Of a stretch of DNA of 64,000 nucleotides, positions 15,762 through 37,859 are shown one piece after another. The DNA lies in assembly GCA_949283075.1 (NCBI GenBank), contig CASDRH010000038.1, positions 44,483-108,482 on the forward strand, in the 5' to 3' direction. How positions within the stretch are numbered: position 1 is the stretch's first letter; the number at the start of each line of letters is the position of its first letter. The position numbers and the translations under genes were made by a program. The DNA is from an uncultured Pseudomonadota bacterium (GTDB lineage: Bacteria > Pseudomonadota > Alphaproteobacteria > Rs-D84 > CASDRH01). The notes under the pieces were generated by a model, which was not told where the DNA came from, did not search any database, and saw only the letters and a list, made by a program, of their open reading frames with translations.

Positions 15762-16310
15762 ATGTGTCTTAATAAATCTTGTCTTAAATGTGGATTATAT
15801 AATTATCAAAAACCTATATATGATGATGAAAAGTTGTCTGATATTATGTGGGTTGGATTGTCTGCTAAATTAATTAATAATGATTTTAAAGCTCCTTTGG
15901 ATTTGAATACTGCTTCTGGAAAAATTATTTCTGATATTGAAATGATGACTTCTGATTTTGTTCATTGTAAAACTAATTTAGTTAAATGTGCTCCTTTAAA
16001 TGATGCTGGTAAATTAAGATATCCTTTTAAATCAGAAATGGATTTTTGCTTTGATAACTTGATTTTAGAAGTTAATAATATAAAGCCTAAAATTATATTT
16101 TTGTTAGGTAAAATTGTATCTGATTTTATTTTATCGAAAAATGGATTTGATAAAATTGCTTTATCTGATAATTTTAAATATAAATCTGTGCAGATAAGTG
16201 ATATTTTATATTATCCTGTTCATCATCCTTCTTATATTTCTGTTTATAAAAAGAAATTTTGTAAGCAATATATTGATAGTATTGTTGATATTATTAAGTC
16301 TAATATTTAA
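15762..16310 (+). CDS. UDG-superfamily protein, family 4/5-like uracil-DNA glycosylase with a 4Fe-4S-type Cys pattern
   Basis: An N-terminal CLKCGL (CxxCxL) plus later Cys residues, IIFLLGK, and a C-terminal VHHPSY (the HPS motif) are present. The motif A position is degenerate (VGLSAK), which is family-5-like. Confidence 0.45.
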   Translation: MCLNKSCLKCGLYNYQKPIYDDEKLSDIMWVGLSAKLINNDFKAPLDLNTASGKIISDIEMMTSDFVHCKTNLVKCAPLNDAGKLRYPFKSEMDFCFDNLILEVNNIKPKIIFLLGKIVSDFILSKNGFDKIALSDNFKYKSVQISDILYYPVHHPSYISVYKKKFCKQYIDSIVDIIKSNI

Positions 16311-16348
16311 TCCTTTATAAATTTTGTTTAATATGTTTATAATTGCTT

Positions 16349-17854
16349 ATGATTATTGATTATAAAGTTTTTACAGATAGAAAAGCTAAATCAAGAGTAT
16401 TGTCTTATATTGCTTTATTGGACAGGGTTTTGTTATGGGAATTTTTTGAATCTGTAAAAAAATATAATGTTAAAGATTTTAAGTTGTCTAGTTTATGTAA
16501 TAAAGAGCAACAATTTAATAAGCTATTAAATGATTTTAATAAAAATCAGAATGTTAGAGATTTTAATTCATATCCTTTTGATTTATTTGGGACTGAGGCT
16601 TTTTTGCATTTCTTATCGAAGCAGATTCAAAATATAAAAAATGATTTTGTTCATTCTTTAAGGTGTAGGCTTTTTATAGATATTCCAGAAAAAGGCTTTC
16701 CAGATTTAAGGAATAAAATTGCTAATATTATGTTGTTAAGACATTATTTTATTCATAACGGCAATCCTCAAAATGGTAATATCGTTATTGATGATAAAGT
16801 TGTTTTAGAAAAGCTTGATATTGTAAAAGCGTTTATTATTTTGTTTGTATTTCTTCCTTATGATTATGCAAATGATATTTTTAATTGTATTAAAGCTTAT
16901 TGTGATAATCCTGATGAATTAAAAACAATATTAGATAAAATTGATAAAAATAAGAAATATGTTAAGGACGATGTTTTAAAAAGTAATCCTGATAATAATT
17001 TTCCAACTTATAAGGATTTATTGGAATCTGATGCTTCGTTAAATAAATTTTTTGAAAGCTATCCTTATATTAGCAGTAAGCGTTTATCTGTTAAGATTAT
17101 GGATAAAAATTTTATCGGAGATTATAATATTGGGCGTATTGAAGCTGTTTTTATGGATTTATATAAATGTAAAGCAGCGGAATTTGTTAAAAAGAAACGT
17201 AAAGATAAATTTTATATGGAACAAATAAAATCTGTTTTTTTCTTGTTCATTAAGATTATTGAAGTTATCCAAAGATATTTTATATTTGAATTTGAAAATG
17301 ATAAAGATAATACAAATAAAAATTATATCAATATAAGGAATGCTGTTTCTCATTCAGATATATTTTTTTATGGAGAAAATAAACAAAAATATCTTGATGA
17401 ATTTGATAAAAATATTAGGGATATTTTATCTTTTTTTGATGAAAAGAAGGATAGAAAATCTTTGAAAATAGAATTTTTAAAAAGTATGGATTCTTTGTTT
17501 GCAAAACGTAATAATTTTAAATTGAAAGTTGTATATGATAAAACGAAGGATAATCATAAAAATCAAATTGAATTATATGATGTTGATGTCAATTTTAATG
17601 AGTTTTTAAAACAAAATGATTTTTCTGATTTTAATAAGTATTCAAGAAAAAGTGTTAATAATAAAATAAAAGAAATTATAAATTCTATATTATCAAATGA
17701 TAATAAAAATAATAGGGTTCAAAGGAAAAATATAAGCTTGGTTAAGTATTCATATTTGTTGGATTTGAAAAAGGAATTGAGAAGAATTTTGAAAAAAGCA
17801 AAAGAGGATAATTATCAGCAATATAATTCTTGTTTTCAGAAAAAAATTGGATAA
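16349..17854 (+). CDS. Compact double-HEPN protein (two R-x4-H motifs) adjacent to a CRISPR-like array; candidate miniature Cas13-like (type VI-like) effector
   Basis: The first HEPN motif is LLRHYFIHNG (R133-x4-H138 in ORF numbering). The second is NIRNAVSHSD (R332-N-x3-H337, the RNxxxH form typical of Cas13 HEPN motifs). The C-terminal tail is Lys-rich. The array starts 88 bp downstream on the same strand. The ORF track start at 16343 is TTG; the first ATG is at 16349. Confidence 0.5.
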   Translation: MIIDYKVFTDRKAKSRVLSYIALLDRVLLWEFFESVKKYNVKDFKLSSLCNKEQQFNKLLNDFNKNQNVRDFNSYPFDLFGTEAFLHFLSKQIQNIKNDFVHSLRCRLFIDIPEKGFPDLRNKIANIMLLRHYFIHNGNPQNGNIVIDDKVVLEKLDIVKAFIILFVFLPYDYANDIFNCIKAYCDNPDELKTILDKIDKNKKYVKDDVLKSNPDNNFPTYKDLLESDASLNKFFESYPYISSKRLSVKIMDKNFIGDYNIGRIEAVFMDLYKCKAAEFVKKKRKDKFYMEQIKSVFFLFIKIIEVIQRYFIFEFENDKDNTNKNYINIRNAVSHSDIFFYGENKQKYLDEFDKNIRDILSFFDEKKDRKSLKIEFLKSMDSLFAKRNNFKLKVVYDKTKDNHKNQIELYDVDVNFNEFLKQNDFSDFNKYSRKSVNNKIKEIINSILSNDNKNNRVQRKNISLVKYSYLLDLKKELRRILKKAKEDNYQQYNSCFQKKIG

Positions 17855-26079: not shown

Positions 26080-26179
26080 ATTTTTTTCTTAATCCTTTTG
26101 AAAAATTTTATTTCTTAAAGAGAATATATATAGAATCTGGAAAAATGTGTAATAAAAATATGTTTCAAAATATTACATA

Positions 26180-26433
26180 TTGCAAAAGGTATAAAAAATT
26201 TTATAATACGGATTGGGTTATTTGATATGACCTGAGGTTTGATAGCCTCCATACGAAGTGCCGGCCAGCGCAATGCTGGAAGGTGGTAAAATAAATCATT
26301 AACACAGATTTTTATCTGTGCTCTTGGTGGTGAATATACCACACTATCTCTTCGTATAGCTATCAACTTCCAGTCTGTGAACTGAAAGATGGTTCATTGA
26401 TTCGTTTAATAAAAAACAAGGAAGGAAAGAGCT
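26180..26433 (+). promoter_or_regulatory. Sigma70 promoter (TTGCAA 26180-26185, 16 nt, TATAAT 26202-26207) plus conserved ~220-nt structured 5' leader (copy A) of the cysteine-rich protein cassette
   Basis: The promoter and leader are conserved in all four leader copies in the window. The leader contains CCAGC-loop-GCTGG, GCTGGAAGGTGGTAAAATAA, a variable hairpin, GGTGGTGAATATACCACACTATCT, and AACTTCCAGC, which is complementary to GCTGGAAG. Confidence 0.6.
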
Positions 26434-26979
26434 ATGGAAAATAAGAAAAATAGAAAAGTAAAATTATTTTTATTAGAAATGATTGTTTTAGGAGTTTTTA
26501 ATTTTGTTGGAATAGAGCATGTATTTGCTCAAGATAAAAAAGAAACGCATATAACTATAAAAAAAGGATTAAATGATGAATTCCTTATTTTAAGTGGTAA
26601 TGGTCCAGATGTGGAAGTTTATGAATGCGTTGAAAAGGTATGTGTTGAGACTCAATATTGGTGTGACCCTGGTGTTATTAATTATACTTTAAAAGTTGAT
26701 AGTAGAGTTTGTGGAAATGGAGGAAAAGGAGATCATCCTCAACATGTAAATCTATATCCTGAGGATAATTGTCAGGCTAAAAAAGCGGTACATGTTTTTT
26801 GGAATTATAAAAAAGCTGATTGTGATTGGACAGATGAAGTATTTGGATCTCCGGATTATAAGAAATCGAAATGTTCTAAATATAAGTGCATAGCTTGGAA
26901 AGCTCCAGCAGATAAAGTTTTATCTTTGATGCCTCTTATTGGACAAGCAATGATTGATGTAAATTTAATTGAATATTAG
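26434..26979 (+). CDS. Cysteine-rich secreted protein, LIEY-tail family member 1
   Basis: A signal peptide is followed by about 12 Cys. The C-terminal tail is KAPADKVLSLMPLIGQAMIDVNLIEY. It is a paralog of 37172-37714, with N and C termini nearly identical and a divergent core. Confidence 0.7.
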   Translation: MENKKNRKVKLFLLEMIVLGVFNFVGIEHVFAQDKKETHITIKKGLNDEFLILSGNGPDVEVYECVEKVCVETQYWCDPGVINYTLKVDSRVCGNGGKGDHPQHVNLYPEDNCQAKKAVHVFWNYKKADCDWTDEVFGSPDYKKSKCSKYKCIAWKAPADKVLSLMPLIGQAMIDVNLIEY

Positions 26980-27064
26980 TAGGTTTACTGGTCGGTTGTT
27001 GTTAAGGTTTTGCTCACCTTTATTTTTAAGGAAGATATTTTTAAAGACTTAATAAACACAATAT

Positions 27065-27130
27065 CAGCTGGAAAGTTTGTAAGTTCATAGCACAACCTCC
27101 TTATTTCCTTTCCAGCTGGCCTTTTATTTA
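27065..27130 (+). terminator. Intrinsic terminator with a perfect 11-bp stem and a conserved loop (family copy A)
   Basis: The stem is CAGCTGGAAAG/CTTTCCAGCTG. The loop is tttgTAAGttcataGCACAACCTCCTTAtttc. A T-run follows. Confidence 0.6.
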
Positions 27131-27167
27131 TCTTAATTTAATCTTTTCTAATTTTCTTAAACACTAC

Positions 27168-27467
27168 TTGCAAAAAAATAAAAAAAATCTATAATACGAA
27201 GCAAGTCATTAAAAATTAATGGCCCGAAGGCGTAGAAACCTTTATACAGTAGTAGCCGACCAGCGCAATGCTGGAAGGTGATAAAATAAAAACCAACGTC
27301 TTTGAAAGTGCATTTTTTGCATTTTTATAGGTATCGGGTAATATATCACGCTATCTTCTACTGTATAGTTTCTAACTTCCAGCTGTGAAGTTAAGAAAAG
27401 TAATTTTTTGTTTTTGCTTTTTTTGTTTCTCGGCTTTTGTGAATTTTTATAAGGGAAGGAAAAAGCT
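27168..27467 (+). promoter_or_regulatory. Promoter (TTGCAA 27168-27173, 16 nt, TATAAT 27190-27195) plus conserved structured 5' leader (copy B)
   Basis: The CCGACCAGCGCAATGCTGGAAGGTG...AACTTCCAGC architecture is the same as copy A, with a different central hairpin. Confidence 0.6.
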
Positions 27468-28082
27468 ATGGTAAAAAATAAAATGAATAATAAAACAAAA
27501 TTATTTTTATTTGAGGTGTTTGTTTTTAATTTTTTTTCTCTAATTGGAATTGATTTGGCATTTTCTGAAGAATTAAGTACAAAAGCAGTTTTAAAAAGAG
27601 AGGGACAAAATTTAGTTTTATCTGCAAATAATAAAAATTATAAGTTAAGTTGTAAAACTCCAGGTTGTATTGTTTATAAGTGTGCTCAGTATGGATGTAA
27701 GGATGGAAAACATTATATATCTGGGGAAACATCAGGGGTTAATACAAAATTTACTGCTGAATTTTATGGCTGTAATAATGTAGACAATAAGGTTGTTTGC
27801 TCATTTAGGCCAGGAGCTGTTGGTGGGTGTGGGGATCAAGGTACTCATTGGAAAACAATGGAAAATGGAAATTGTTCAACAGAGTCATTTACTTATTTTG
27901 CTGGTCATCCTATTACGTTTTGTAATAATGGATGGATTAGATTTACTGCTACTCCTTTTTGTGTTCGAACTGAATGTATGACACAGGGATGTACAGAATG
28001 GGAAATAAATGGAAAAGATTTCTTAGCATTATTTCCATCAGTTGGTATGGCTACAATAGATCCAAATAATATAGAATTTTAA
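27468..28082 (+). CDS. Cysteine-rich secreted protein, LIEY-tail family member 2
   Basis: A signal peptide and many Cys are present. The C-terminal tail is CTEWEINGKDFLALFPSVGMATIDPNNIEF. Confidence 0.65.
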   Translation: MVKNKMNNKTKLFLFEVFVFNFFSLIGIDLAFSEELSTKAVLKREGQNLVLSANNKNYKLSCKTPGCIVYKCAQYGCKDGKHYISGETSGVNTKFTAEFYGCNNVDNKVVCSFRPGAVGGCGDQGTHWKTMENGNCSTESFTYFAGHPITFCNNGWIRFTATPFCVRTECMTQGCTEWEINGKDFLALFPSVGMATIDPNNIEF

Positions 28083-28096
28083 CTTTGGAGGATGTT

Positions 28097-28852
28097 ATGA
28101 AAAAGTTTATTATATTTAATATAATATTATTGATTGGGTTGTCAGATTTATATTCAAATACATTTAATTATGATTCTGCTGATGGTAAAGATATAATGAC
28201 AGCTATTGGTGGAAAAGGAAAAAAACAGCTTAAATGTAAAAAGATTGGATGTATATCTAATGCTAATGAGAAAATTTGTGGTGGTAGAGTTTTTTTTAAT
28301 AATACTACTATGGATGGAACTTTCTGTGATAGTTATTATGGTTGTGGATATGGAGGAGATAAAAAGTGTAAGGTTAAAATTTATACTTATGTTGATACAG
28401 ATTTACCTTTATCTTTAATGGGGAAGTTAAGTAAAAAGTATAAGAAAATTGAGAAAATAGAGGTTACTGATGAAAATGGTAATCAGATTGATGAATGTAA
28501 AGTAAGAAAGTGTAGCCAAGGTAATTATAATTGCTCTAATAGTGATTATTCTAATAAAGAAAGTATTAGTGAAATTGAAATATTTAGATATGAAGATCAG
28601 TCTTTAGTCTATAACTATTATCCTACAGATGAAATATATAAAGTACATTTAACAACAGGTAATAATTGCTCTGGATATTATGTAGATTATTCTTCTTCTC
28701 CTTCAGAAAGTAGATATATTACTGCAGAAGTAATTGATTCCCCTTGTTCAAAAGAAGGTTGTATTGAATGGGAAACAGATGCTTTGGATATATTAAGTAT
28801 TATGCCAGATATTGGATTGGAGGCGATTAACACATATTTAATTGAATATTAA
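28097..28852 (+). CDS. Cysteine-rich secreted protein, LIEY-tail family member 3, co-transcribed with member 2
   Basis: A GGAGG SD lies 5 nt upstream of the ATG at 28097, and the gene starts 12 nt after the member-2 stop. The C-terminal tail is CIEWETDALDILSIMPDIGLEAINTYLIEY. Confidence 0.65.
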   Translation: MKKFIIFNIILLIGLSDLYSNTFNYDSADGKDIMTAIGGKGKKQLKCKKIGCISNANEKICGGRVFFNNTTMDGTFCDSYYGCGYGGDKKCKVKIYTYVDTDLPLSLMGKLSKKYKKIEKIEVTDENGNQIDECKVRKCSQGNYNCSNSDYSNKESISEIEIFRYEDQSLVYNYYPTDEIYKVHLTTGNNCSGYYVDYSSSPSESRYITAEVIDSPCSKEGCIEWETDALDILSIMPDIGLEAINTYLIEY

Positions 28853-28937
28853 TCAAGTTTACTGGTCGGTTTCGTTTGTGTTGGAAGCTATTACACCTTA
28901 TATAATTTATGAATATATTTTTATTGTTTCTTGATTA

Positions 28938-29003
28938 TCAGATGAGTGAGTTTTTAAGTTCATAGCACAACCTCCTTATTTCTCATTCATCTGACTTTTT
29001 TTA
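28938..29003 (+). terminator. Intrinsic terminator with a 13-bp stem (one G.U wobble) and a conserved loop (family copy B)
   Basis: The stem is TCAGATGAGTGAG/CTCATTCATCTGA. The loop is tttTAAGttcataGCACAACCTCCTTAtttct. A T-run follows. Confidence 0.6.
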
Positions 29004-29096
29004 TTTTCAATTTCTTTAATTAATATTATTTAATTTTTTTATTATTTAATTTATGGTTATTCTTATTTTATTGAAGCTTTTATGATGGATTTGGTT

Positions 29097-29138
29097 GCCG
29101 AAGAATGATTTTTTTATGCACAACCTCCATTCTTCGGC
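29097..29138 (+). other. Additional hairpin carrying the same conserved loop motif (perfect 11-bp stem GCCGAAGAATG/CATTCTTCGGC, loop containing GCACAACCTCC)
   Basis: Read from the sequence. It lies about 100 bp downstream of the copy-B terminator, before the valS 3' end. Confidence 0.5.
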
Positions 29139-29159
29139 CTTTATAGAAATTTTAAATTT

Positions 29160-31844
29160 TTAGAATTGTTTTAGAATTATTTCTAATTTTTCAATTAAAA
29201 TTATAGTTGATTGTTCTTTTAGTTTCATATCTTCTATTAAATCTTTATCTGCATTATTTATGAAACCTTCATTTGATAGTTTTGATTTTATTCCATTTAA
29301 ATATTTTGTTTTGTTTTCTAATTCTGATTTTAGCATTTCATTTACTTTTTGCCAATCAACAGAATCTATTTTTATAAAAGATATTGTCCCATCTTTTATA
29401 GGTAAATCTACACTTTGTTTGTCTGTGTTTTCACAAATATTTACTCTTCCTAAATTGCTTATCATTTTTTTAGCAATTTTGCTGTTTGATATAAATTCAT
29501 TGTTTATTTTACAATCAATTATTTGTGAAGCTAATCCTATATTTGATTTAAATGACCTTATTTGTTCTATTATTTCAAATGTATCATTTGTTAGTGTCTT
29601 ATTTGCTTTTTTATAATTTTCAAATAAAGAATCGTCTATTTCTGATGGTAAGATTGATGAAGCTATGAATTTATATTCAGTATCTCCTATTTCTTGCCAT
29701 AGATGTTCTGTTATAAATGGCATATATGGATGTAGCAATTGTAATGCTTTTTTGAAAGTATATTTTGCAATTTGTTTTGTTTGTTCTTTTTCTGATTCAT
29801 TTTCTGTATCAGTTAGAATTACTTTTAATGCTTCTATATACCAGCTACAAAAATCGCTCCATATAAATTCGTATATATACATTATTGATTCTGATAGACG
29901 ATAATCTTTTATTGCTGTATCAATTGATTTTATACATTTGTTTAATTTTTCTAAAATCCAGACGTTTATATCAGTTAAGTTATGAAAATCATTTATGATA
30001 TCGTTTTTAGATAAATCTTTTGCTTTTAATATGTCATATCTTTCTAAAAATTTTGTAGCATTATATATTTTAGTGCTGAAATCTCTCCAACCTTCAAGTT
30101 GTTTTTCATTAAACTTTACATCTGCACCTGGCTTTGTTTGAGATACTAAATAAGCTCTTAATGCATCAGCTGAATATTGCTTTATCATATCCATTGGGTC
30201 TATACCATTTCCTTTGGATTTGCTCATTTTTTGACCTTTTGAATCTCTCATTAAGCCGTGTATGAATATGTGTTTAAATGGAGGAACTTTGTTCATACAG
30301 TATGTTCCTGCCATAATCATTCTTGCTACCCAATAGAATATTATGTCGAATCCTGTGATTAAAATTGTATTTGGATAGAATTTTTTTAAATCCGGAGATT
30401 CTGTGTTTGGCCAACCTAATGTCGCAAATGGCCATAGTGCTGATGAAAACCAAGTGTCTAGGACGTTTTCATCTCTTGTCAAATCTGATTTTGATATTTC
30501 TTTACCATATTCTTTGCTTGCAGATTTTATTGCTTCTTCTTCTGATATTTCACAGAACATTTTGCCATCTGGTCCATACCATACTGGAATTTGGTGTCCC
30601 CACCATAAAGACCTTGAAATACACCAAGGTTCTATATTTTCCATAAAGTGGAAATATATATTTTCGCGATATTTTGGTATGAATTTTATGATTTCTTTTT
30701 TTACTACATCTATTGCTCCATATTTTTCAATTAGAGTTTTTGTGTCTACGAACCATTGTTCTGTCATCATTGGTTCAATGATAGTTCCTGACCTTTCTCC
30801 GTATGGGATTACTGATTTTGTTTTTTCTATTTTTTCTAATATTCCCATTTGTTCCAAATCTGATACAACAGCTTTTCTTGCATCAAATCTGTCCATTCCT
30901 TGATATTTTTCAGGTGCATTTTCGTTTAGTTTTGCATTTAAATCAAATACTGAAATCGCTTCTAGGTTATGGCGTTTTCCAACTTCATAGTCGTTGAAAT
31001 CGTGAGCAGGAGTTATTTTTACTGCTCCTGTTCCTTTTTCTGGATCTGCGTATTCATCTGCTATAATAGGAATTTCTTTATTGCTTATAGGAATAATAGC
31101 TGTCTTTCCTATTAAATGTTTAAGTTTTTCATTTTCTGGGTGTATAGCAATTGCTACGTCAACAAATATTGTTTCTGGGCGAGTCGTTGCTATAACTATG
31201 TAATCATCTTTACTATCCTTTAATGCGTATCTGATGTAGTGCATATAATGTGTTTCTTCTTTTGATTCTACTTCTAAATCTGATACTGCTGTTTGTAATC
31301 TTATGTCCCAGTTTATAAGTCTTAATCCTTTATAAATTAAACCTTCTTTATATAGATTGACGAAGAATTGTAAAACTGCTTTTGATAAGCCTTCGTCCAT
31401 AGTAAATCTTTCTCTGTCCCAATCTGGAGAAATTCCTAATGCTTTGAATTGATTTATTATCATTCCGCCAGAGTATTTTTTCCAATCCCAAACCCTTTGT
31501 AAGAATTTTTCTCTTCCTAGGTCGTATCTGGATATACCTTCTTTATCCATTTGTTTTTCTACAACCATTTGAGTCATTATTCCTGCGTGGTCAAGTCCTG
31601 CTTGCCATAAGACATTTTTACCTTTCATCCTGTTATAACGGACTAGGACATCTTGAATTGAGTTATCCATTGCGTGTCCTAAATGAGCAACTCCTGTAAC
31701 ATTTGGAGGAGGCATCATTACACAAAAATTTTCTTCTGGATTGTCTGATGCTTTTGATACATCTGTTTTGAATATTCCTGCTTTTATCCAAGCGTCATAT
31801 ATTTCTTTTTCCAATTTTTCAAAATTGAATCTGTTTTCTAGCAT
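29160..31844 (-). CDS. valS: Valine--tRNA ligase
   Basis: HIGH (PPPNVTGVAHLGHAMD) and KMSKS motifs are present. The length is 894 aa with a C-terminal coiled-coil. Confidence 0.95.
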   Translation of the reverse strand: MLENRFNFEKLEKEIYDAWIKAGIFKTDVSKASDNPEENFCVMMPPPNVTGVAHLGHAMDNSIQDVLVRYNRMKGKNVLWQAGLDHAGIMTQMVVEKQMDKEGISRYDLGREKFLQRVWDWKKYSGGMIINQFKALGISPDWDRERFTMDEGLSKAVLQFFVNLYKEGLIYKGLRLINWDIRLQTAVSDLEVESKEETHYMHYIRYALKDSKDDYIVIATTRPETIFVDVAIAIHPENEKLKHLIGKTAIIPISNKEIPIIADEYADPEKGTGAVKITPAHDFNDYEVGKRHNLEAISVFDLNAKLNENAPEKYQGMDRFDARKAVVSDLEQMGILEKIEKTKSVIPYGERSGTIIEPMMTEQWFVDTKTLIEKYGAIDVVKKEIIKFIPKYRENIYFHFMENIEPWCISRSLWWGHQIPVWYGPDGKMFCEISEEEAIKSASKEYGKEISKSDLTRDENVLDTWFSSALWPFATLGWPNTESPDLKKFYPNTILITGFDIIFYWVARMIMAGTYCMNKVPPFKHIFIHGLMRDSKGQKMSKSKGNGIDPMDMIKQYSADALRAYLVSQTKPGADVKFNEKQLEGWRDFSTKIYNATKFLERYDILKAKDLSKNDIINDFHNLTDINVWILEKLNKCIKSIDTAIKDYRLSESIMYIYEFIWSDFCSWYIEALKVILTDTENESEKEQTKQIAKYTFKKALQLLHPYMPFITEHLWQEIGDTEYKFIASSILPSEIDDSLFENYKKANKTLTNDTFEIIEQIRSFKSNIGLASQIIDCKINNEFISNSKIAKKMISNLGRVNICENTDKQSVDLPIKDGTISFIKIDSVDWQKVNEMLKSELENKTKYLNGIKSKLSNEGFINNADKDLIEDMKLKEQSTIILIEKLEIILKQF

Positions 31845-31941
31845 TATTTTATCCGTTTTTTTATGATGAAATTCTTATTATTTTTGTATTATTAAAGAAT
31901 ATATAAAAGAATTTAAAATACAAGTGAAATATTGTTTTTAA

Positions 31942-32010
31942 AAGGCCAGCTGGAAAGGAAATAAGGAGGTTGTGCTATGAACTTACAAACTTTCCAGCTG
32001 ATATTGTGTT
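31942..32010 (-). terminator. Intrinsic terminator of family member 4; reverse-complement copy, nearly identical to copy A
   Basis: The reverse complement of 31940-32040 matches 27030-27125 almost base for base. Confidence 0.55.
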
Positions 32011-32052
32011 TATTAAGTCTTTAAAAATATCTTCCTTAAAAATAAAGTTTTT

Positions 32053-32580
32053 TTAGTATTCAATTAAGTTTGGGTCTACACGAGAGATACCAATTTCTGG
32101 CATAGCTTTTAATATGTCCATTACATCAAGTTCAATGTATTCAACTTCTCTGTTATTAAAATGATTTGGGTCGCTACTTGTGCTATACATTACACTTCCA
32201 TCAGAAAATTTATGTTCGTATACATCTTTATTTGTGCAATCACTCCATTCTCTTCCATCTATTGTTGATCCTAATTTTGTATACTTTCCACAGAATACTA
32301 TGTTTTGCCAACCTCTATTAGATGATGGGGGATTAATAGAATCATTGAAATTTAGTAGATTTCTACAATTTGAAGTATCAGTAGTACAAAATTTTGTAAC
32401 AGATACTGCTTTACCTTTGCTATATCTTAATTTAATTTTTTGTGATTGTTCTTGAGCTTTAATGTATTGATTACTTGATAAGCATAGAATTGCAATAAAC
32501 ATAAAAGTGATTTTTGCAATTTTGCTTTGTAATTTATTTTCTTTAAAAATACTTGTTTTTTTATTTACTATTTTTTCCAT
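32053..32580 (-). CDS. Cysteine-rich secreted protein, LIEY-tail family member 4
   Basis: A signal peptide is present. The C-terminal tail is VEYIELDVMDILKAMPEIGISRVDPNLIEY. Cys are distributed through the core. Confidence 0.65.
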   Translation of the reverse strand: MEKIVNKKTSIFKENKLQSKIAKITFMFIAILCLSSNQYIKAQEQSQKIKLRYSKGKAVSVTKFCTTDTSNCRNLLNFNDSINPPSSNRGWQNIVFCGKYTKLGSTIDGREWSDCTNKDVYEHKFSDGSVMYSTSSDPNHFNNREVEYIELDVMDILKAMPEIGISRVDPNLIEY

Positions 32581-32834
32581 AGCTTTTTCCTTCCTTGTTT
32601 TTTAGTTTAACAAAAACTGACTACTTTCTTTCAGCAATCAGCTGGAAGTTGAGAACTATGTAAGCTTTATAGTGTGGCATATTCACCACCAAAGGCGCCG
32701 GTTTTCCAGCGTTAATGACTTATTTTACCACCTTCCAGCAATTTATAGCTGGTCGGCTTGCTTACTAAGGCTCTCACACCTCGGGTCGTATTTCGACTTA
32801 GTTTTTATTATAGTTTTTTTTATATCTTTTGCAA
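32581..32834 (-). promoter_or_regulatory. Promoter (TTGCAA 32829-32834 and TATAAT 32807-32812 on the minus strand, 16-nt spacer) plus conserved structured 5' leader (copy D)
   Basis: The reverse complement contains CCGACCAGCtataaattGCTGGAAGGTGGTAAAATAAGTCATTAAC...GGTGGTGAATATGCCACACTAT...AACTTCCAGCTG. Confidence 0.6.
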
Positions 32835-32971
32835 TAATGTTTTTGTTTGCTTTTTATTAGTTTCCTTTTGATATTTATTAAATTGTATTTTTTCTATTTT
32901 TATTATATTGACTTTTGGATATTGTCTATTATAAAATTTTGTCAATTATTTTATTGTAATAATATTTTTAA

Positions 32972-33228
32972 GGAGTTTGTGATGACTGATAGAATTTTAA
33001 AGAAATTATTTAGGGGTAAAAAGATAGATATTTTGGATATATCATATCTTTTTAAGTCTTTTTAAGAGTGGTATTTATATTGATACTAAATATGGTAAAG
33101 CTGTAATTGTTTATCCCGGTATGAAATACTACAATGGGATTGATACAATTATAATACCAGAAAAAGGTGTGATAGTTGAAAGTAGCAACGGAGATATTTA
33201 TAAATATATTTCTGAAAGTAATTTATAA
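32972..33228 (+). pseudogene. Possible frameshifted small gene: two adjacent short reading frames joined across a T-run near 33058-33063
   Basis: Frame 0 reads MTDRILKKLFRGKKIDILDISYLFKSF and stops at 33065. The +1 frame continues as SGIYIDTKYGKAVIVYPGMKYYNGIDTIIIPEKGVIVESSNGDIYKYISESNL and stops at 33228. A T5 run lies at the junction. Confidence 0.2.
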
Positions 33229-34441: not shown

Positions 34442-34670
34442 TTTTTATTGTTATTTATGTTTTTTGTAAAGTATTATTTGATATTTATTTTTGCTTATAT
34501 TTTTTATTTATTTTTTGATTTGTTTTGTCAATTCTTTTTGTCAAAAAATGCTTGCGGTGATTTTTAATTTTTTGTATAATTCGTCTTATCTGGTTTTTAC
34601 TCAGAATTGTTAAAAGGAATTTTCCATAACATTTTTTGCGTTGGAAAGGGAATATAAAAAGGAAGGAAAA

Positions 34671-35417
34671 ATGAAAAAAGAAAATAATAAAAACTTATCT
34701 AAAAATAATAATGTAACAAATAAGGCTCAGGTTGCTTATTTCTTGTGGTTAGAAAAAGGTTGTCCAGAGAGTATGGAAGAAGCTGTTTATATGTCAGTTG
34801 CTGATCGTCAATGTCCAGCTGGCGTTGATAAAGCAATATGGGATAACGCAAAAGCTAGATTAGCAAAACGTGTTTATGAAATAGCTAATATTAAAAAAGC
34901 TGTTGCTAATGAAGATAAAGTTGAAACTTTGAAATCTGATGTTTCAGTTGATAAAAAAGCAGAAGTTAAGAAACCAGAAGCAAAGAAAGTTGTAAAAGCT
35001 GTTAAAAAAGCAAAAGCAGTTGCTAAAAAGGTTGAAAAGAAAGTTGAAGCTAAAAAAGCTGAAATTAAAGCTGTTGTAAAAGCAGAAGTTAAGAAACCAG
35101 AAGCAAAGAAAGTTGTAAAAGCTGTTAAAAAAGCAAAAGCAGTTGCTAAAAAGGTTGAAAAGAAAGTTGAAGCTAAAAAAGCTGAAGTAAAGAAGATTGC
35201 TGAAAAAGCTAAAGCTCCAGTTATTTCTATTGTTAAAAAAGAAGAAGTAAAAAAAGCTGTTAAATCTGTTAAAGCTAAATCCTCTTCATCTAAACCAGCG
35301 AAGAAAATCGTTAATAAGGTGAAGAAAAATGATCCGCTTACAGAAGCTTTGAATAAAGCAGAAAGCAAAATTGTTTCTATTACAAATCATAATTTGAAGA
35401 AAGTTGTAAATAAATAA
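34671..35417 (+). CDS. Histone H1-like Lys/Ala-rich repeat protein
   Basis: An AAGGAAGG SD precedes the ATG at 34671. The C-terminal two thirds is AKKVEKKVEAKKAE-type repeats. Confidence 0.55.
   Translation: MKKENNKNLSKNNNVTNKAQVAYFLWLEKGCPESMEEAVYMSVADRQCPAGVDKAIWDNAKARLAKRVYEIANIKKAVANEDKVETLKSDVSVDKKAEVKKPEAKKVVKAVKKAKAVAKKVEKKVEAKKAEIKAVVKAEVKKPEAKKVVKAVKKAKAVAKKVEKKVEAKKAEVKKIAEKAKAPVISIVKKEEVKKAVKSVKAKSSSSKPAKKIVNKVKKNDPLTEALNKAESKIVSITNHNLKKVVNK
34959..35204 (+). repeat. Perfect tandem duplication with a 123-nt (41-aa) period, of which about 105 nt are identical, inside the histone-like gene
   Basis: gcagaagttaagaaaccagaagcaaagaaagttgtaaaagctgttaaaaaagcaaaagcagttgctaaaaaggttgaaaagaaagttgaagctaaaaaagctgaa occurs twice, at 34959 and 35082. 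Confidence 0.85.
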
Positions 35418-36905: not shown

Positions 36906-37171
36906 TTGCAAAATTATCATAAAAAACTATAATTGTTTTTTGATTGGGGGATAAACCAATCAGAGGTGTCAGAGCCTTTACATCAAGTAACCGACCGGCG
37001 ATTTGCTGGAAGGTGGTAAAATAAGTCATTTGTCGTGCTGTCTTTCAGTGCGCGTCTTTTGTGGCGAATATGCCACACTATCTCTTGATGTATAGTTCTG
37101 AACTTCCAGCTGTTAGCTGAAAGGTTGATGGCGTTTTTTGTTAATTAAATAAAAAATAGGGAGTGTGAGCT
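36906..37171 (+). promoter_or_regulatory. Promoter (TTGCAA 36906-36911, 16 nt, TATAAT 36928-36933) plus conserved structured 5' leader (copy C)
   Basis: CCGACCgGCGatttGCTGGAAGGTGGTAAAATAAGTCATT...GtGGcGAATATGCCACACTATCTCTT...AACTTCCAGCTG is present. Confidence 0.6.
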
Positions 37172-37714
37172 ATGGAAAATAAAAAGAATAGAAAAGTAAA
37201 AATATTTTTATTTGGAGTGTTTATTTTAGGAGTTTGTAATTTTGTTGGATTAGAGCAAGGTATTGCTCAAGATAAAAAAGAAACGCATATTACTATAAAA
37301 AAAGGTTTAAATGATGATTTTATTATTTTAAGTGGTAATGGTCCGGATGTGAGAATTGCTGAATGTGCTGAAAAGGTATGTGTTCAGATGAGTTATTGGT
37401 GTGATCCGGGTAGTGTTGGATATATTCATGATGTGAATAGTGATGTTTGTGGAAATGGTGGAAGAGGGAAACATCATAAAACAGCATATTTAGATTATAA
37501 TAGTAATTGTCAAGCTAGAGTAAGAACTAAAACTAGTTATAAAACTTGGGAAGGTTGTTATGATTTATATTCAATAGTTGGCTCGCCATCTTATAAGAGA
37601 TCTGGATGTTCTAAATATAGATGTATAGCATGGAAAGCTCCAGCAGATAAGGTTTTATCTTTGATGCCTCTTATTGGACAATCAATGATTGATGTTAATT
37701 TAATTGAATATTAG
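37172..37714 (+). CDS. Cysteine-rich secreted protein, LIEY-tail family member 5 (close paralog of member 1)
   Basis: The N-terminal 50 aa and C-terminal 30 aa are nearly identical to member 1, and the core is divergent. Confidence 0.7.
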   Translation: MENKKNRKVKIFLFGVFILGVCNFVGLEQGIAQDKKETHITIKKGLNDDFIILSGNGPDVRIAECAEKVCVQMSYWCDPGSVGYIHDVNSDVCGNGGRGKHHKTAYLDYNSNCQARVRTKTSYKTWEGCYDLYSIVGSPSYKRSGCSKYRCIAWKAPADKVLSLMPLIGQSMIDVNLIEY

Positions 37715-37773
37715 TAAATTTTTTGGTCGGTTTCCTGCTTAAATTTATGTGTCTATTTTTATGGTTTTGAATG

Positions 37774-37826
37774 ACGACTTGTGAGTAATTTTTGCACAAC
37801 CTCTTATTCACAGGTCGATTTTTTTA
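37774..37826 (+). terminator. Intrinsic terminator with a 14-bp stem (two G.U/U.G wobbles) and a conserved loop (family copy C)
   Basis: The stem is CGACTTGTGAGTAA/TTATTCACAGGTCG. The loop is tttttGCACAACCTC. T7 follows. Confidence 0.55.
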
Positions 37827-37828
37827 TT

Positions 37829-37859
37829 AAAAAAAGCCTGATTAAAACAGGCTTTTTAA
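37829..37859. terminator. Bidirectional terminator between family member 5 and rplY
   Basis: The stem AAGCCTG-attaaaa-CAGGCTT is flanked by A/T runs. Confidence 0.55.

Follow-up and report, generated by a model that had tools for sequence, protein, structure and literature searches.

The 3' untranslated regions (3'UTRs) of a family of small, Cys-rich, hypervariable secreted proteins, private to one lineage of an AT-rich uncultured bacterium, carry hairpins with differing stems and one conserved loop, and this loop is complementary to translation initiation regions of the same family. We suppose that such loops are antisense elements that would occlude the ribosome-binding sites (RBS) of family members, mainly in trans; judged from the sequences, the probability of this reading is roughly 0.55. 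The hairpins lie in the window, i.e. the whole stretch of 64 kb of DNA that was analysed, and in related contigs.

The paralogous proteins of the family are only 22-40% identical, and their cassettes occur one at a time, dispersed among housekeeping genes. No Pfam match was obtained for the proteins, and no Rfam family for the hairpins or the 5' leaders, either at the gathering threshold over the whole window or at E<=10 in 26100-29200. A family-profile search of the contigs of GTDB species representatives returned 38 pattern matches, which is about the chance level according to our own estimate from the information content of the pattern; none of them was confirmed, and thus the family is absent from the GTDB species representatives. 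For ValS, the closest GTDB proteins, which come from Rhizomicrobium and from unclassified Proteobacteria MAGs, share only 41-54% identity. A scan of JGI metagenomes with the leader pattern gave 78 matches, all of them GC-rich chance hits, and revealed no leader, no box1-plus-motif combination and no family gene.

Hairpins in the Window and in Related Contigs

The motif GCACAACCTC occurs in five exact copies in the window, at 27090, 28965, 29118 and 37794 on the plus strand and at 31966-31975 on the minus strand. With up to one mismatch allowed, 1.04 occurrences are expected by chance, and the observed number was matched in 0 of 100 shuffles; the sole near-match (63581) is located within the gyrB coding sequence. 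All five exact copies sit in stable hairpins (-16 to -21 kcal/mol, z-scores from -2.2 to -5.2) 60-100 nt 3' of the stop codon of a family gene, and each loop carries the motif, as had been claimed; the motif is entirely unpaired and abuts the 3' arm. None of the 17 sites in the window with one or two mismatches falls in a hairpin.

Hairpin A (27065-27118, plus strand; -20.6 kcal/mol, z -4.8) belongs to the 3'UTR of the family gene 26434-26979 and has the stem CAGCTGGAAAG/CTTTCCAGCTG and a long loop with the sequence ...GUUCAUAGCACAACCUCCUUAUUU, the core being at 27090-27099. Hairpin B (28938-28994, plus strand; -19.4 kcal/mol, z -5.2), in the 3'UTR of the two-gene family operon 27468-28852, also has a long loop (core 28965-28974), on the stem TCAGATGAGTGAG/CTCATTCATCTGA with one G.U pair, and is followed by a good U-tract. 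About 100 nt past it lies hairpin C (29097-29138, plus strand; -16.1 kcal/mol, z -2.2), an orphan or a second hairpin, with the stem GCCGAAGAATG/CATTCTTCGGC, the loop AUUUUUUUAUGCACAACCUC and a weak U-tract, 22 nt from the stop codon of valS on the opposite strand. Hairpin D (37775-37817, plus strand), in the 3'UTR of the family gene 37172-37714, combines the stem CGACTTGTGAGTAA/TTATTCACAGGTCG, containing two G.U pairs, with the short loop UUUUUGCACAACCUC (core 37794-37803) and folds at -16.1 kcal/mol as sense versus -9.2 kcal/mol as antisense RNA. Hairpin E (31947-32000, minus strand; 3'UTR of the minus-strand family gene 32053-32580) lies in a 109-nt segment (31939-32047) that repeats the hairpin A module (27018-27126) in reverse complement with 100% identity. 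All five predicted hairpins are thus present, but D starts at 37775 rather than 37774, and E, as an exact inverted duplicate of A, leaves four independent stems in the window. The cassettes have a second conserved 3'UTR element, Box1 (TGGTCGGTT), directly after the stop codon (26989-26997, 28863-28871 and 37724-37732, plus strand).

The enlarged set, consisting of the window and related contigs, comprises about 16-18 different stems, 13 of them with the exact 10-mer, which is enclosed in loops of 14-32 nt. A search of 296 kb of this lineage found 21 distinct contexts of the 10-mer, all of two types: the loop of a gene-sense 3'UTR hairpin and, as the reverse complement, the 5'UTR/start region of a family gene. 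Among the hairpin contexts with the exact 10-mer, 15 of 16 lie 3' of a family gene in a single orientation, only C being orphan-like, which argues against a dispersed repeat of the REP/MITE type, whose copies have conserved arms and are not tied to any one gene. A further orphan hairpin, R (contig L005), has a degenerate motif.

The stems had been described as unrelated, and their sequences do differ, with bases as diverse as CAGYC, CGAC, GGG, GCCG, GATT and TGAA; about seven stems of the enlarged set, however, have the common base CAG(U/C)...CUG.

Strand and Transcription Termination

The outer stems of the enlarged set contain, when read on the gene-sense strand, about 11 G.U and no A.C pairs, as counted from sense and antisense folding together with direct reading of the hairpin arms; those of the window account for one G.U in B and two in D. 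As all the wobbles are G.U on the gene-sense strand, as the original prediction had it, the structure is RNA. Antisense folding costs hairpins D, P, M, J and L2a 4-7 kcal/mol. The comparison of whole-hairpin minimum free energies (10 in favor of the sense strand versus 8 of the antisense) is not decisive, since perfect stems fold equally well both ways and only the wobbles are informative. The cassettes bear sense-strand RNA hairpins in their 3'UTRs.

As to the view that these hairpins are intrinsic terminators, it holds only in part. Like terminators, they are stable stems 60-100 nt past a stop codon, and the U-tract following them is good in about 10 of 18 and weak in about three; however, it is absent in five (G, H, K, Q and R). 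The loops of intrinsic terminators are typically 3-8 nt long, whereas those considered here are longer and conserved in sequence, and a consensus terminator scan with loops of 3-8 nt called no motif hairpin. Just 3' of hairpin D, a canonical bidirectional terminator (AGCCTG-attaaaa-CAGGCT with a T-run, 37835-37858, not assigned to either strand) was read directly from the sequence, which indicates that a motif hairpin need not be a terminator. Its persistence both without a U-tract and before a canonical terminator argues for a role beyond termination.

The Loop and Its Complements

The invariant unit of the loop is GCACAACCUC, which long loops extend to UUCAUAGCACAACCUCC, while short loops read UUUUGCACAACCUC; its conservation on differing stems supports the view that selection acts on the loop and not on the stem. 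The proposed likeness to the 3' tail of 16S rRNA has not stood as the conserved feature: ACCUCCUUA, corresponding to that tail, occurs in the long-loop copies only, and CCUC is all of it that is invariant. The remaining invariant part, GCACAA, matches the family start region instead. GCACAACCUC is antisense to the Shine-Dalgarno (SD) sequence GAGG, the spacer UUGU and the GC preceding AUG (GAGG-UUGU-GC-UAUG), so that the invariance of GCACAA would be explained by its complementarity to the spacer and to this GC; in long loops the complementarity runs across the AUG. In a 5'UTR, the word corresponding to the loop core would be GAGGUUGUG(C), and a loop variant such as ACAAACCUCC would be matched by the start-region variant GGAGGUUUGU. 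The loop variants are C-to-U changes (N has ACAAUCUCU, J has UAU for CAU) that still allow pairing with the target G as G.U, and the change in J destroys the antisense ATG; as an argument this is weak, because in an AT-rich genome neutral changes, too, are most often C-to-U.

The perfect complements belong to two family genes outside the window, famY and famX, which have GGAGGTTGTGCTATGAA at their start codons. The match to the loop is 17 nt in the famY start region (contigs L092, 12929, minus strand, and L099, 10330, plus strand) and 16 nt in that of famX (L092, 2547, plus strand); in a strain variant of famX (L093) it is replaced by GAGGCTGTGC, which would introduce an A.C mismatch into the duplex. 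A second famY site, GAGGTTGTGCAAAAA in the 5'UTR, gives a perfect 15-nt match with short loops of the D type, and up to four different loop-complementary sites are found in the famY 5'UTR, versus one in the famX start region. famY itself lacks the loop motif and is followed by an ordinary terminator in L092 and by an unrelated loop in L099. Both genes probably belong to the same genome as the window, as suggested by the shared assembly ERZ16268121, whose scaffold_22 (L008) encodes a SerS identical to that of the window, shares its hairpin D context and is collinear with it from serS on.

No start region within the window is more than a partial complement. Over both strands of the 64 kb, loops A and B have their best non-self partner in the start region of family gene 37172 (AUAGGGAGUGUGAGCUAUGG, 37155-37178, plus strand), with duplex energies of -23.6 and -23.9 kcal/mol, respectively. 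Partial complements of the long loops are present in the start regions of family genes 26434 (AAGGAAGGAAAGAGCUAUGG, 26418-26440, plus strand), 27468 (GGGAAGGAAAAAGCUAUGG, 27452-27474, plus strand) and 32580 (AAGGAAGGAAAAAGCUAUGG, 32574-32596, minus strand); in the first of them CCUCCUU pairs with AAGGAAGG and CAUAGC with GCUAUG. Pairing with the family leaders of the window that carry the AAGGAAGG SD, as originally proposed, is predicted but moderate (-15 to -18 kcal/mol), the perfect partners being famY and famX.

The complementarity is specific to the family. The mean energy of the duplex with loop A is -21.1 kcal/mol for 16 family start regions versus -9.3 kcal/mol for 101 non-family ones (p=4e-10), and with the core by itself the means are -7.6 and -3.7 kcal/mol (p=2e-4). 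Complements of at least 14 nt inside family 5'UTRs were found for 8 of 16 real loops; in the control, an average of 0.81 of 16 shuffled loops had any match of at least 14 nt anywhere. The extended 5'UTR/RBS complementarity that marks 3'UTRs acting in trans is therefore present here beyond chance, and it supports the supposition that the loop probably pairs in trans with family SD regions.

Several other pairings were rejected. Loop G also matches, over 12 nt, the start region of a lipoprotein gene from outside the family (L095, 458), which was judged to reflect a generic strong SD with a spacer and no specific target. With the 5' leader hairpin GAGGUGU...CCUU the loop forms only 6-8 bp with a bulge, and this leader element already folds locally into a hairpin supported by covariation. 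Between the leader sequence GCCGRCCAG and Box1 (YTGGTCGGTT, following the stop codon) there is a real 9-nt complementarity; however, the central leader position (A/G/U) is uncompensated in Box1, leaving U.U or C.A in three cassettes.

Proposed Mechanism and Alternative Explanations

The mechanism that we favor would operate as follows. The stem needs only to pair and displays a single-stranded loop antisense to a translation initiation region of the family type. Being part of a full-length mRNA or of a stable 3' fragment, the loop would form a loop-to-linear duplex with a family 5'UTR/RBS, most strongly with those of famY and famX and more weakly with those of other members, its own mRNA included. 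Such a duplex would block binding of the 30S subunit and might create a substrate for RNase III. Expression of hairpin-bearing members would in this way repress the target members, resulting in cross-regulation or a hierarchy within the family, and in most cassettes the same hairpin with its U-tract would also terminate transcription. On the opposite side of the balance, the version acting in trans rests on a few target genes, loops of 14-32 nt exceed classical kissing loops, and the complementarity could have originated when a piece of a start region was duplicated in inverted orientation, without serving any function at present.

Extended to the whole family, the proposal becomes that of an mRNA-mRNA cross-repression network, in which members carry the same antisense silencer loop and a few hubs carry arrays of sites; we put it forward tentatively and hold it to be possible but rather doubtful. 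If it is true, transcribing one set of paralogs would translationally silence another, which would make up an RNA-based hierarchy or a mutual-exclusion switch for the variable surface/secreted repertoire of a host-associated bacterium.

Other explanations have to be weighed against antisense pairing with family start sites. The loop could be the site of a sequence-specific RNA-binding protein governing mRNA stability, localisation or processing, with the complementarity to start regions being incidental. An invariant core on varying stems is typical of protein-recognised stem-loops, and here the 10-nt core, placed at the 3' side of the loop or close to it, is unchanged in 13 hairpins, the stems of which all differ; besides, conservation is higher in the loops than in most start regions of the family, and the second box, TGGTCGGTT, is devoid of an RNA partner supported by covariation. 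We nevertheless find a protein site unlikely, since it leaves unexplained both the perfect 15-17-nt complements in family 5'UTRs/start regions and the match of two loop lengths to two famY sites, and the cassettes are not linked to any candidate gene for such a protein. Somewhat less likely again is that the hairpins are ordinary intrinsic terminators, whose loops are functionless relics of an inverted duplication of a family start region and were carried along with the 3'UTR as gene conversion spread it. The good U-tracts of about ten hairpins fit this, as does the mobility of the 3'UTR modules (those of A and E are identical, although the upstream genes are different); common descent is visible in the CAGYC base of several stems, and the flanking 3'UTR boxes are likewise common to the cassettes. 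However, neutral loops should drift faster than stems, while here the loop is invariant despite the low identity of the paralogs and the wholly diverged stems, its length is poor for a terminator, and the hairpin is kept where a U-tract is missing or a separate terminator stands beside it. Action in cis, in which the 3' loop folds onto the SD/start codon of its own mRNA and limits or times translation, has a precedent in icaR of Staphylococcus aureus (PMC3868564) and draws on the partial complementarity of each hairpin-bearing mRNA's start region to its own loop (-10 to -17 kcal/mol). We consider it improbable: own pairs yield -4 to -17 kcal/mol, short loops only a weak -4 to -10 kcal/mol, the perfect complements belong to other genes, and no covariation of the loop with its own start region was detected (own versus paralog, mean z +0.36), so that own start regions are matched at most as well as those of paralogs, with a slight disadvantage on average, which leaves the icaR-like version unsupported.

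The remaining two explanations shift the function to DNA or to the opposite strand. If the element marked the ends of mobile cassettes, as a site of recombination or inversion or as a REP/MITE/attC-like mobile repeat, this would agree with the scattering of the cassettes, with the opposite orientation of the motif at the two ends of family genes, with the orphan copies C and R, and with the 109-nt inverted repeat, which flanks valS plus an operon and at which at least one assembly contig (L001) terminates exactly. In recombinase sites, however, the arms are conserved and the center is variable, which is the reverse of what is observed here; the excess of G.U over A.C argues for selection on the sense-strand RNA, the 3' copies all have one orientation relative to the gene, there is no linked recombinase, and loop inversion would need longer inverted segments than those present. 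Integron attC sites in particular have conserved core sites (R''/R' GTTRRRY) at an imperfect stem base, a variable center and a linked integrase; the hairpins described here, with a conserved loop in the center, variable stem bases and no integrase adjacent to the cassettes, were rejected as attC. We thus regard a DNA-level role as very improbable. Least credible of all is the coding of small peptides, e.g. type I toxins, by the antisense strand. A/E and B read AAGGAGGTTGTGCTATG there, an SD and ATG opening ORFs of 15 and 18 codons, but the peptides are unrelated past MNL, the antisense RNA stems would hold C.A mismatches, and the comparative data contradict it, as the ATG is missing from short loops and replaced by ATA in J. 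The mini-ORFs are therefore not the conserved feature, as the original prediction had also concluded; the antisense SD plus ATG that it had noticed was a key clue, read, however, as a possible ORF and not as mimicry of the target.

Comparison With Known Systems

Only few single cases of bacterial 3'UTRs regulating in trans are known, and conserved anti-SD loops are found mainly in dedicated sRNAs; here, a putative regulatory module is built into hypervariable secreted-protein paralogs and aimed at their own start-site sequence. If the proposal is true, a variable gene repertoire would be coordinated or ranked at the level of RNA, which is usually accomplished by DNA rearrangement or transcription factors. 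The sequences are defined (the loop, the famY and famX start regions and the upstream famY site), which makes the prediction testable in a heterologous host, and the combination of a variable stem and a conserved loop at gene ends may serve as a search signature for such modules.

Among the closest precedents are the cuckoo RNAs of Alphaproteobacteria (CcsR/RSs0680, ar14/SmelC397), the stems of which change in a compensatory way around a conserved C-rich, anti-SD-like loop presumed to occlude the RBS (PMC4615179, PMC8034643). Like them, the hairpins described here are alphaproteobacterial and have variable stems and one conserved anti-SD-like loop motif. However, the cuckoo motif is CCUCCUCCC, displayed on 2-4 adjacent hairpins of a dedicated sRNA (PMC4615179, PMC8034643), whereas here it is GCACAACCUC(C/U/A), on a single hairpin ending each hairpin-bearing family mRNA; each 3'UTR has just one, and B and C are the sole pair spaced by no more than about 100 nt. 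The loop, moreover, has no Rfam match and fits the SD-spacer-AUG of specific paralogs rather than a generic SD. In icaR of S. aureus, pairing of a C-rich motif of the 3'UTR with the SD region prevents initiation and yields a substrate for RNase III (PMC3868564), and a C-rich 3'UTR motif complementary to an mRNA SD region is likewise what we observe; but icaR is one self-acting gene, while here at least 16 paralogous cassettes are involved and the perfect targets are other members. As for the 3'UTR of vigR in S. aureus (PMC9217812) and the 3'UTR-derived sRNAs (reviewed in PMC5502269), other mRNAs are controlled through base pairing with the 3'UTR of a coding transcript, and the same kind of control is proposed here. 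Those, however, are single hubs with diverse targets, whereas in the present case the module is replicated across a family and would be aimed at the start region typical of that family.

The gene family and its setting

The window has a G+C content of about 27%. Between 26.1 and 37.9 kb it contains five members of one gene family, organised as four transcription units: the single-gene units at 26434-26979 (+), 37172-37714 (+) and 32053-32580 (-), and the two-gene operon at 27468-28082 and 28097-28852 (+), with valS, serS, rplY and a gene for a bactofilin interspersed among them. The proteins are small and secreted; the part between the conserved signal peptide and the likewise conserved C-terminus (...MPxIGxSxIDPNLIEY; MPEIGISRVDPNLIEY in the family proteins P0001-P0051) is Cys-rich and hypervariable; paralogs are 22-40% identical, and no Pfam domain was found in any of them. 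Alleles of one locus differ strongly between samples. The family resembles a rapidly evolving repertoire of effectors or surface proteins. In the fusion members (16121-17131 (-) of the related contig L002; P0022, P0024 and P0026 (L096 10001-10813)) an N-terminal domain of about 170-200 aa with the motifs YHGT... and GDGFYFT precedes the Cys-rich family C-terminal module, which here ends with IDPNNIEF; their leader and 3' hairpin are the same as in the rest of the family, and such an arrangement would be in keeping with a polymorphic toxin or an effector. The window also encodes a Lys/Ala/Val-rich protein with 123-nt tandem repeats (34641-35417, +), whose N-terminal DUF2934 match is weak, under the Pfam cut-off; all seven assembly contigs recovered via SerS begin within or just past this gene, upstream of serS.

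The family is rare: among 5.8 billion proteins a single-sequence search retrieved 5 members and a profile search 36 family proteins or clusters, all from a few ENA/Logan sample series. It was not found in GTDB species representatives, and a scan of JGI metagenomes with the leader pattern gave no related cassette. The nearest ValS proteins, 41-54% identical, come from Rhizomicrobium or unclassified Proteobacteria MAGs, and the matches of neighbouring genes (TrcR/DUF1013, CarD, LppC, AsmA, LpxA) are consistent with an alphaproteobacterium-like lineage that is not represented. A further 23 loci (L001-L013, L092-L101/L102) came from contigs that encode 12 of the proteins retrieved, the window SerS among them.

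Every family transcription unit opens with a TTGCAA-16-TATAAT promoter. The leader that comes next, some 230 nt long, is conserved and structured, and at its end a terminator-like hairpin with a U-run directly precedes the SD sequence. Leaders are located at 26208-26433, 27196-27467 and 36934-37171 (+) and 32581-32806 (-), and outside the window at L002 9768-10000, L092 2290-2546 and in L094, L095, L096, L099 and L101. Their invariant blocks (GCUGGAAGGUGRU, GAAUAURYCACRCUAU and AACUUCCAGCUG) are separated by variable hairpins; the leader looks like a riboswitch or attenuator, and it has no Rfam match. In the 3'UTR a TGGTCGGTT box close behind the stop codon comes first, then an AT-rich box and finally the motif hairpin; the minus-strand unit lacks the first of these. 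This G+C-rich box, (C/T)TGGTCGGTT, lies 5-12 nt past the stop codon of most family genes (26989-26997, 28863-28871 and 37724-37732; same position in L002, L094, L095, L096, L099 and L102). It is complementary to GCCGRCCAG of the leader, but a 5'-3' helix is not supported, because the central position does not covary, being U.U or C.A in three cassettes. In most cassettes the AT-rich box (T)ATATTTTTAAAG (27040-27055; equivalent positions in L002, L094, L095, L101 and L092) precedes the motif hairpin by 20-35 nt. It could act as the -10-like element of a separate transcript of the hairpin; no consistent -35 element was found for it.

Conserved loops in variable stems

The original prediction described five hairpins with unrelated stems and a common loop. 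The motif GCACAACCTC has indeed five exact copies in the window, a count reached in none of 100 shuffles, and all five are unpaired within stable hairpins at 27065-27118 (A), 28938-28994 (B), 29097-29138 (C) and 37775-37817 (D) on the plus strand and 31947-32000 (E) on the minus strand. It is not merely a frequent word, because none of the 17 sites with one or two mismatches falls in a hairpin. The 10-mer occupies the 3' border of the loop, or a position close to it, in every copy. Four of the stems are independent, but the fifth is not, since the 3'UTR module with hairpin E (31939-32047) is an exact 109-nt inverted repeat (100%) of that with hairpin A (27018-27126). This repeat flanks a 4.8-kb segment with the two-gene family operon and valS; its minus-strand copy has replaced the gene's own TGGTCGGTT box, and contig L001 of another assembly ends exactly at it. 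The repeat is a sign that 3'UTR modules have been converted recently, and it might serve as a substrate for inversion.

The window and the 23 further loci together contain 16-18 different stems, thirteen with the exact 10-mer and five with a variant (ACAAACAACCUCC, CACAAACCUCC, ACAAUCUC, AAACAACCUC, CACAACCUCC). One subtype of the family, famY, located outside the window, lacks the loop motif: in L092 it ends with an ordinary terminator, and the loop of its hairpin in L099 is unrelated. An orphan weak hairpin in L005 (270-320, -), with a 6-bp stem CGAAGG/CCTTCG and the loop ...AUAACACAACCUCCUUAUUU, sits 3' of a membrane-protein gene from outside the family, beyond that gene's own canonical terminator; most probably a cassette has decayed here and left it behind. 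The 16S-like ACCUCCUUA is confined to the long-loop copies.

As had been claimed, the structure belongs to RNA of the sense strand. The outer stems contain about 11 G.U and no A.C pairs on this strand, the other mismatches being U.U or bulges; the wobble-bearing hairpins are 3-7 kcal/mol less stable when folded as the antisense strand, and all 3' copies share one orientation relative to the gene. The wobble asymmetry and the single orientation point to the RNA of the mRNA strand as the selected structure.

Their designation as intrinsic terminators applies to a part of the set. Hairpins with a good U-tract, about 10 of 18, probably do terminate, but in five (G, H, K, Q and R, on related contigs) the U-tract is absent, hairpin D is followed after 17 nt by a separate canonical bidirectional terminator (37835-37858), and none of the motif hairpins was picked up by a consensus terminator scan, which allows for loops of 3-8 nt. 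For these reasons we regard termination as a frequent second role, not the conserved one.

What the loops match

The reverse complement of the long loop, AAUAAGGAGGUUGUGCUAUGAAC, is a translation start region of the family type, (A/G)GGA(A)GG-N3-5-GCUAUG(G/A)AA. The annotated ATG of famY carries GGAGGTTGTGCTATGAA, a perfect 17-nt complement, in two diverged orthologues (L092 12929-, L099 10330+), and the start region of famX, another family gene outside the window (L092 2547+), a perfect one of 16 nt. Upstream, the famY 5'UTR has the site GAGGTTGTGCAAAAA in L092 and its G.U variant GAGGTTGTGT in L099; the former is complementary to the short D-type loop UUUUUGCACAACCUC over 15 nt without a mismatch. 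Further, GTGAGTGCTA of this 5'UTR complements class-2 loops (...GCACUCAC...), and GTCAACGTAATAAA in L092 is complementary over 14 nt to the loop of the famY hairpin in L099, a loop that is otherwise unrelated. The famY 5'UTR (L092 12930-13130, -; L099 10070-10330, +) contains three to four separate short segments that are conserved between two otherwise diverged orthologues, and each of them complements the loops of another class of family 3' hairpins; in L092 these sites are kept while the aptamer-like core of the leader is lost.

In 296 kb, each of the 21 distinct contexts of the 10-mer is either the loop of a 3' hairpin or a 5'UTR or start region of a family gene. In an RNAduplex comparison of 16 family with 101 non-family start regions, the means were -21.1 and -9.3 kcal/mol for loop A (p=4e-10) and -7.6 and -3.7 kcal/mol for the core alone (p=2e-4). 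Across both strands of the whole window, no non-self site pairs better with loops A and B than the start region of gene 37172 (-23.6/-23.9 kcal/mol, z about -5.5). Complements of at least 14 nt within family 5'UTRs were found for 8 of 16 real loops; of shuffled loops, a mean of 0.81 of 16 had a match of at least 14 nt anywhere. The few substitutions in the paired loop part are all C-to-U (ACAAUCUCU in hairpin N; UAU for CAU in J, abolishing the antisense ATG) and would still pair with the target as G.U, which is weak evidence, as C-to-U is also the commonest neutral change. At 32908-33065 (+) a promoter-like TTGACT-18-TAAAAT precedes AAGGAGTTTGTGATG, opening a 27-codon ORF (MTDRILKKLFRGKKIDILDISYLFKSF); its start region resembles a family-type target and ranks fairly high as a partner of loops A and B (-19.9/-18.6 kcal/mol).

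Proposed mechanism and alternatives

We consider it somewhat better than an even bet (about 0.55) that the loops act by RNA-RNA pairing, as antisense to family start regions. The suggestion that the loop pairs with SD regions would then stand, but as an antisense specific for family starts, not as a mimic of 16S rRNA. The stem would display a single-stranded loop of 14-32 nt, at which a duplex would start to form with the SD-spacer-AUG of family mRNAs and with sites further upstream in their 5'UTRs, most strongly in the case of famY and famX; the duplex would keep 30S subunits from binding and might expose the RNA to RNase III cleavage. When hairpin-bearing members are expressed, translation of target members would drop, and mildly that of all family members, which may amount to cross-regulation or dosage control within the family. 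Since the upstream site of famY in L099 lies between the 3' strand of the leader (AACUUCCAGC) and the attenuator hairpin, pairing there could also affect attenuation.

A protein-binding loop would account for the invariance of the motif, yet it leaves the 15-17-nt complements in family 5'UTRs unexplained, and we hold it to be unlikely. Slightly less likely still is an inert relic of inverted duplication, which would explain the origin of the loop but not its invariance beside fully diverged stems, given protein identity of 22-40%. Fold-back in cis onto the gene's own start region is improbable: the own start is no better a partner than that of a paralog (mean z +0.36), and the best partners of every loop are the famY, famX and P0044-type start regions, which favours action in trans. 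Sites acting at the DNA level are contradicted both by the wobble asymmetry and by the layout, with a conserved centre and variable arms, and appear very improbable. The antisense mini-ORFs are scarcely credible as the conserved unit, in agreement with the original prediction, as they are not conserved across copies.

Comparison with known systems

The family hairpins have no Rfam match. Variable stems around a conserved C-rich loop, which they display, are the hallmark of the alphaproteobacterial cuckoo/CcsR RNAs, whose motif CCUCCUCCC occurs in 2-4 hairpins of dedicated sRNAs (PMC4615179); however, the family hairpins lack the sequence and architecture features that define this group. Pairing of a 3'UTR with an SD sequence is established for icaR, in cis and with RNase III (PMC3868564), and a trans-acting mRNA 3'UTR for vigR (PMC9217812). 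By analogy, the family element would work like these systems while belonging to none of them. What is new is a single antisense module replicated on all paralogous members of a family and aimed at the family's own type of start region and, alongside it, the presence of several matching sites in hub 5'UTRs.
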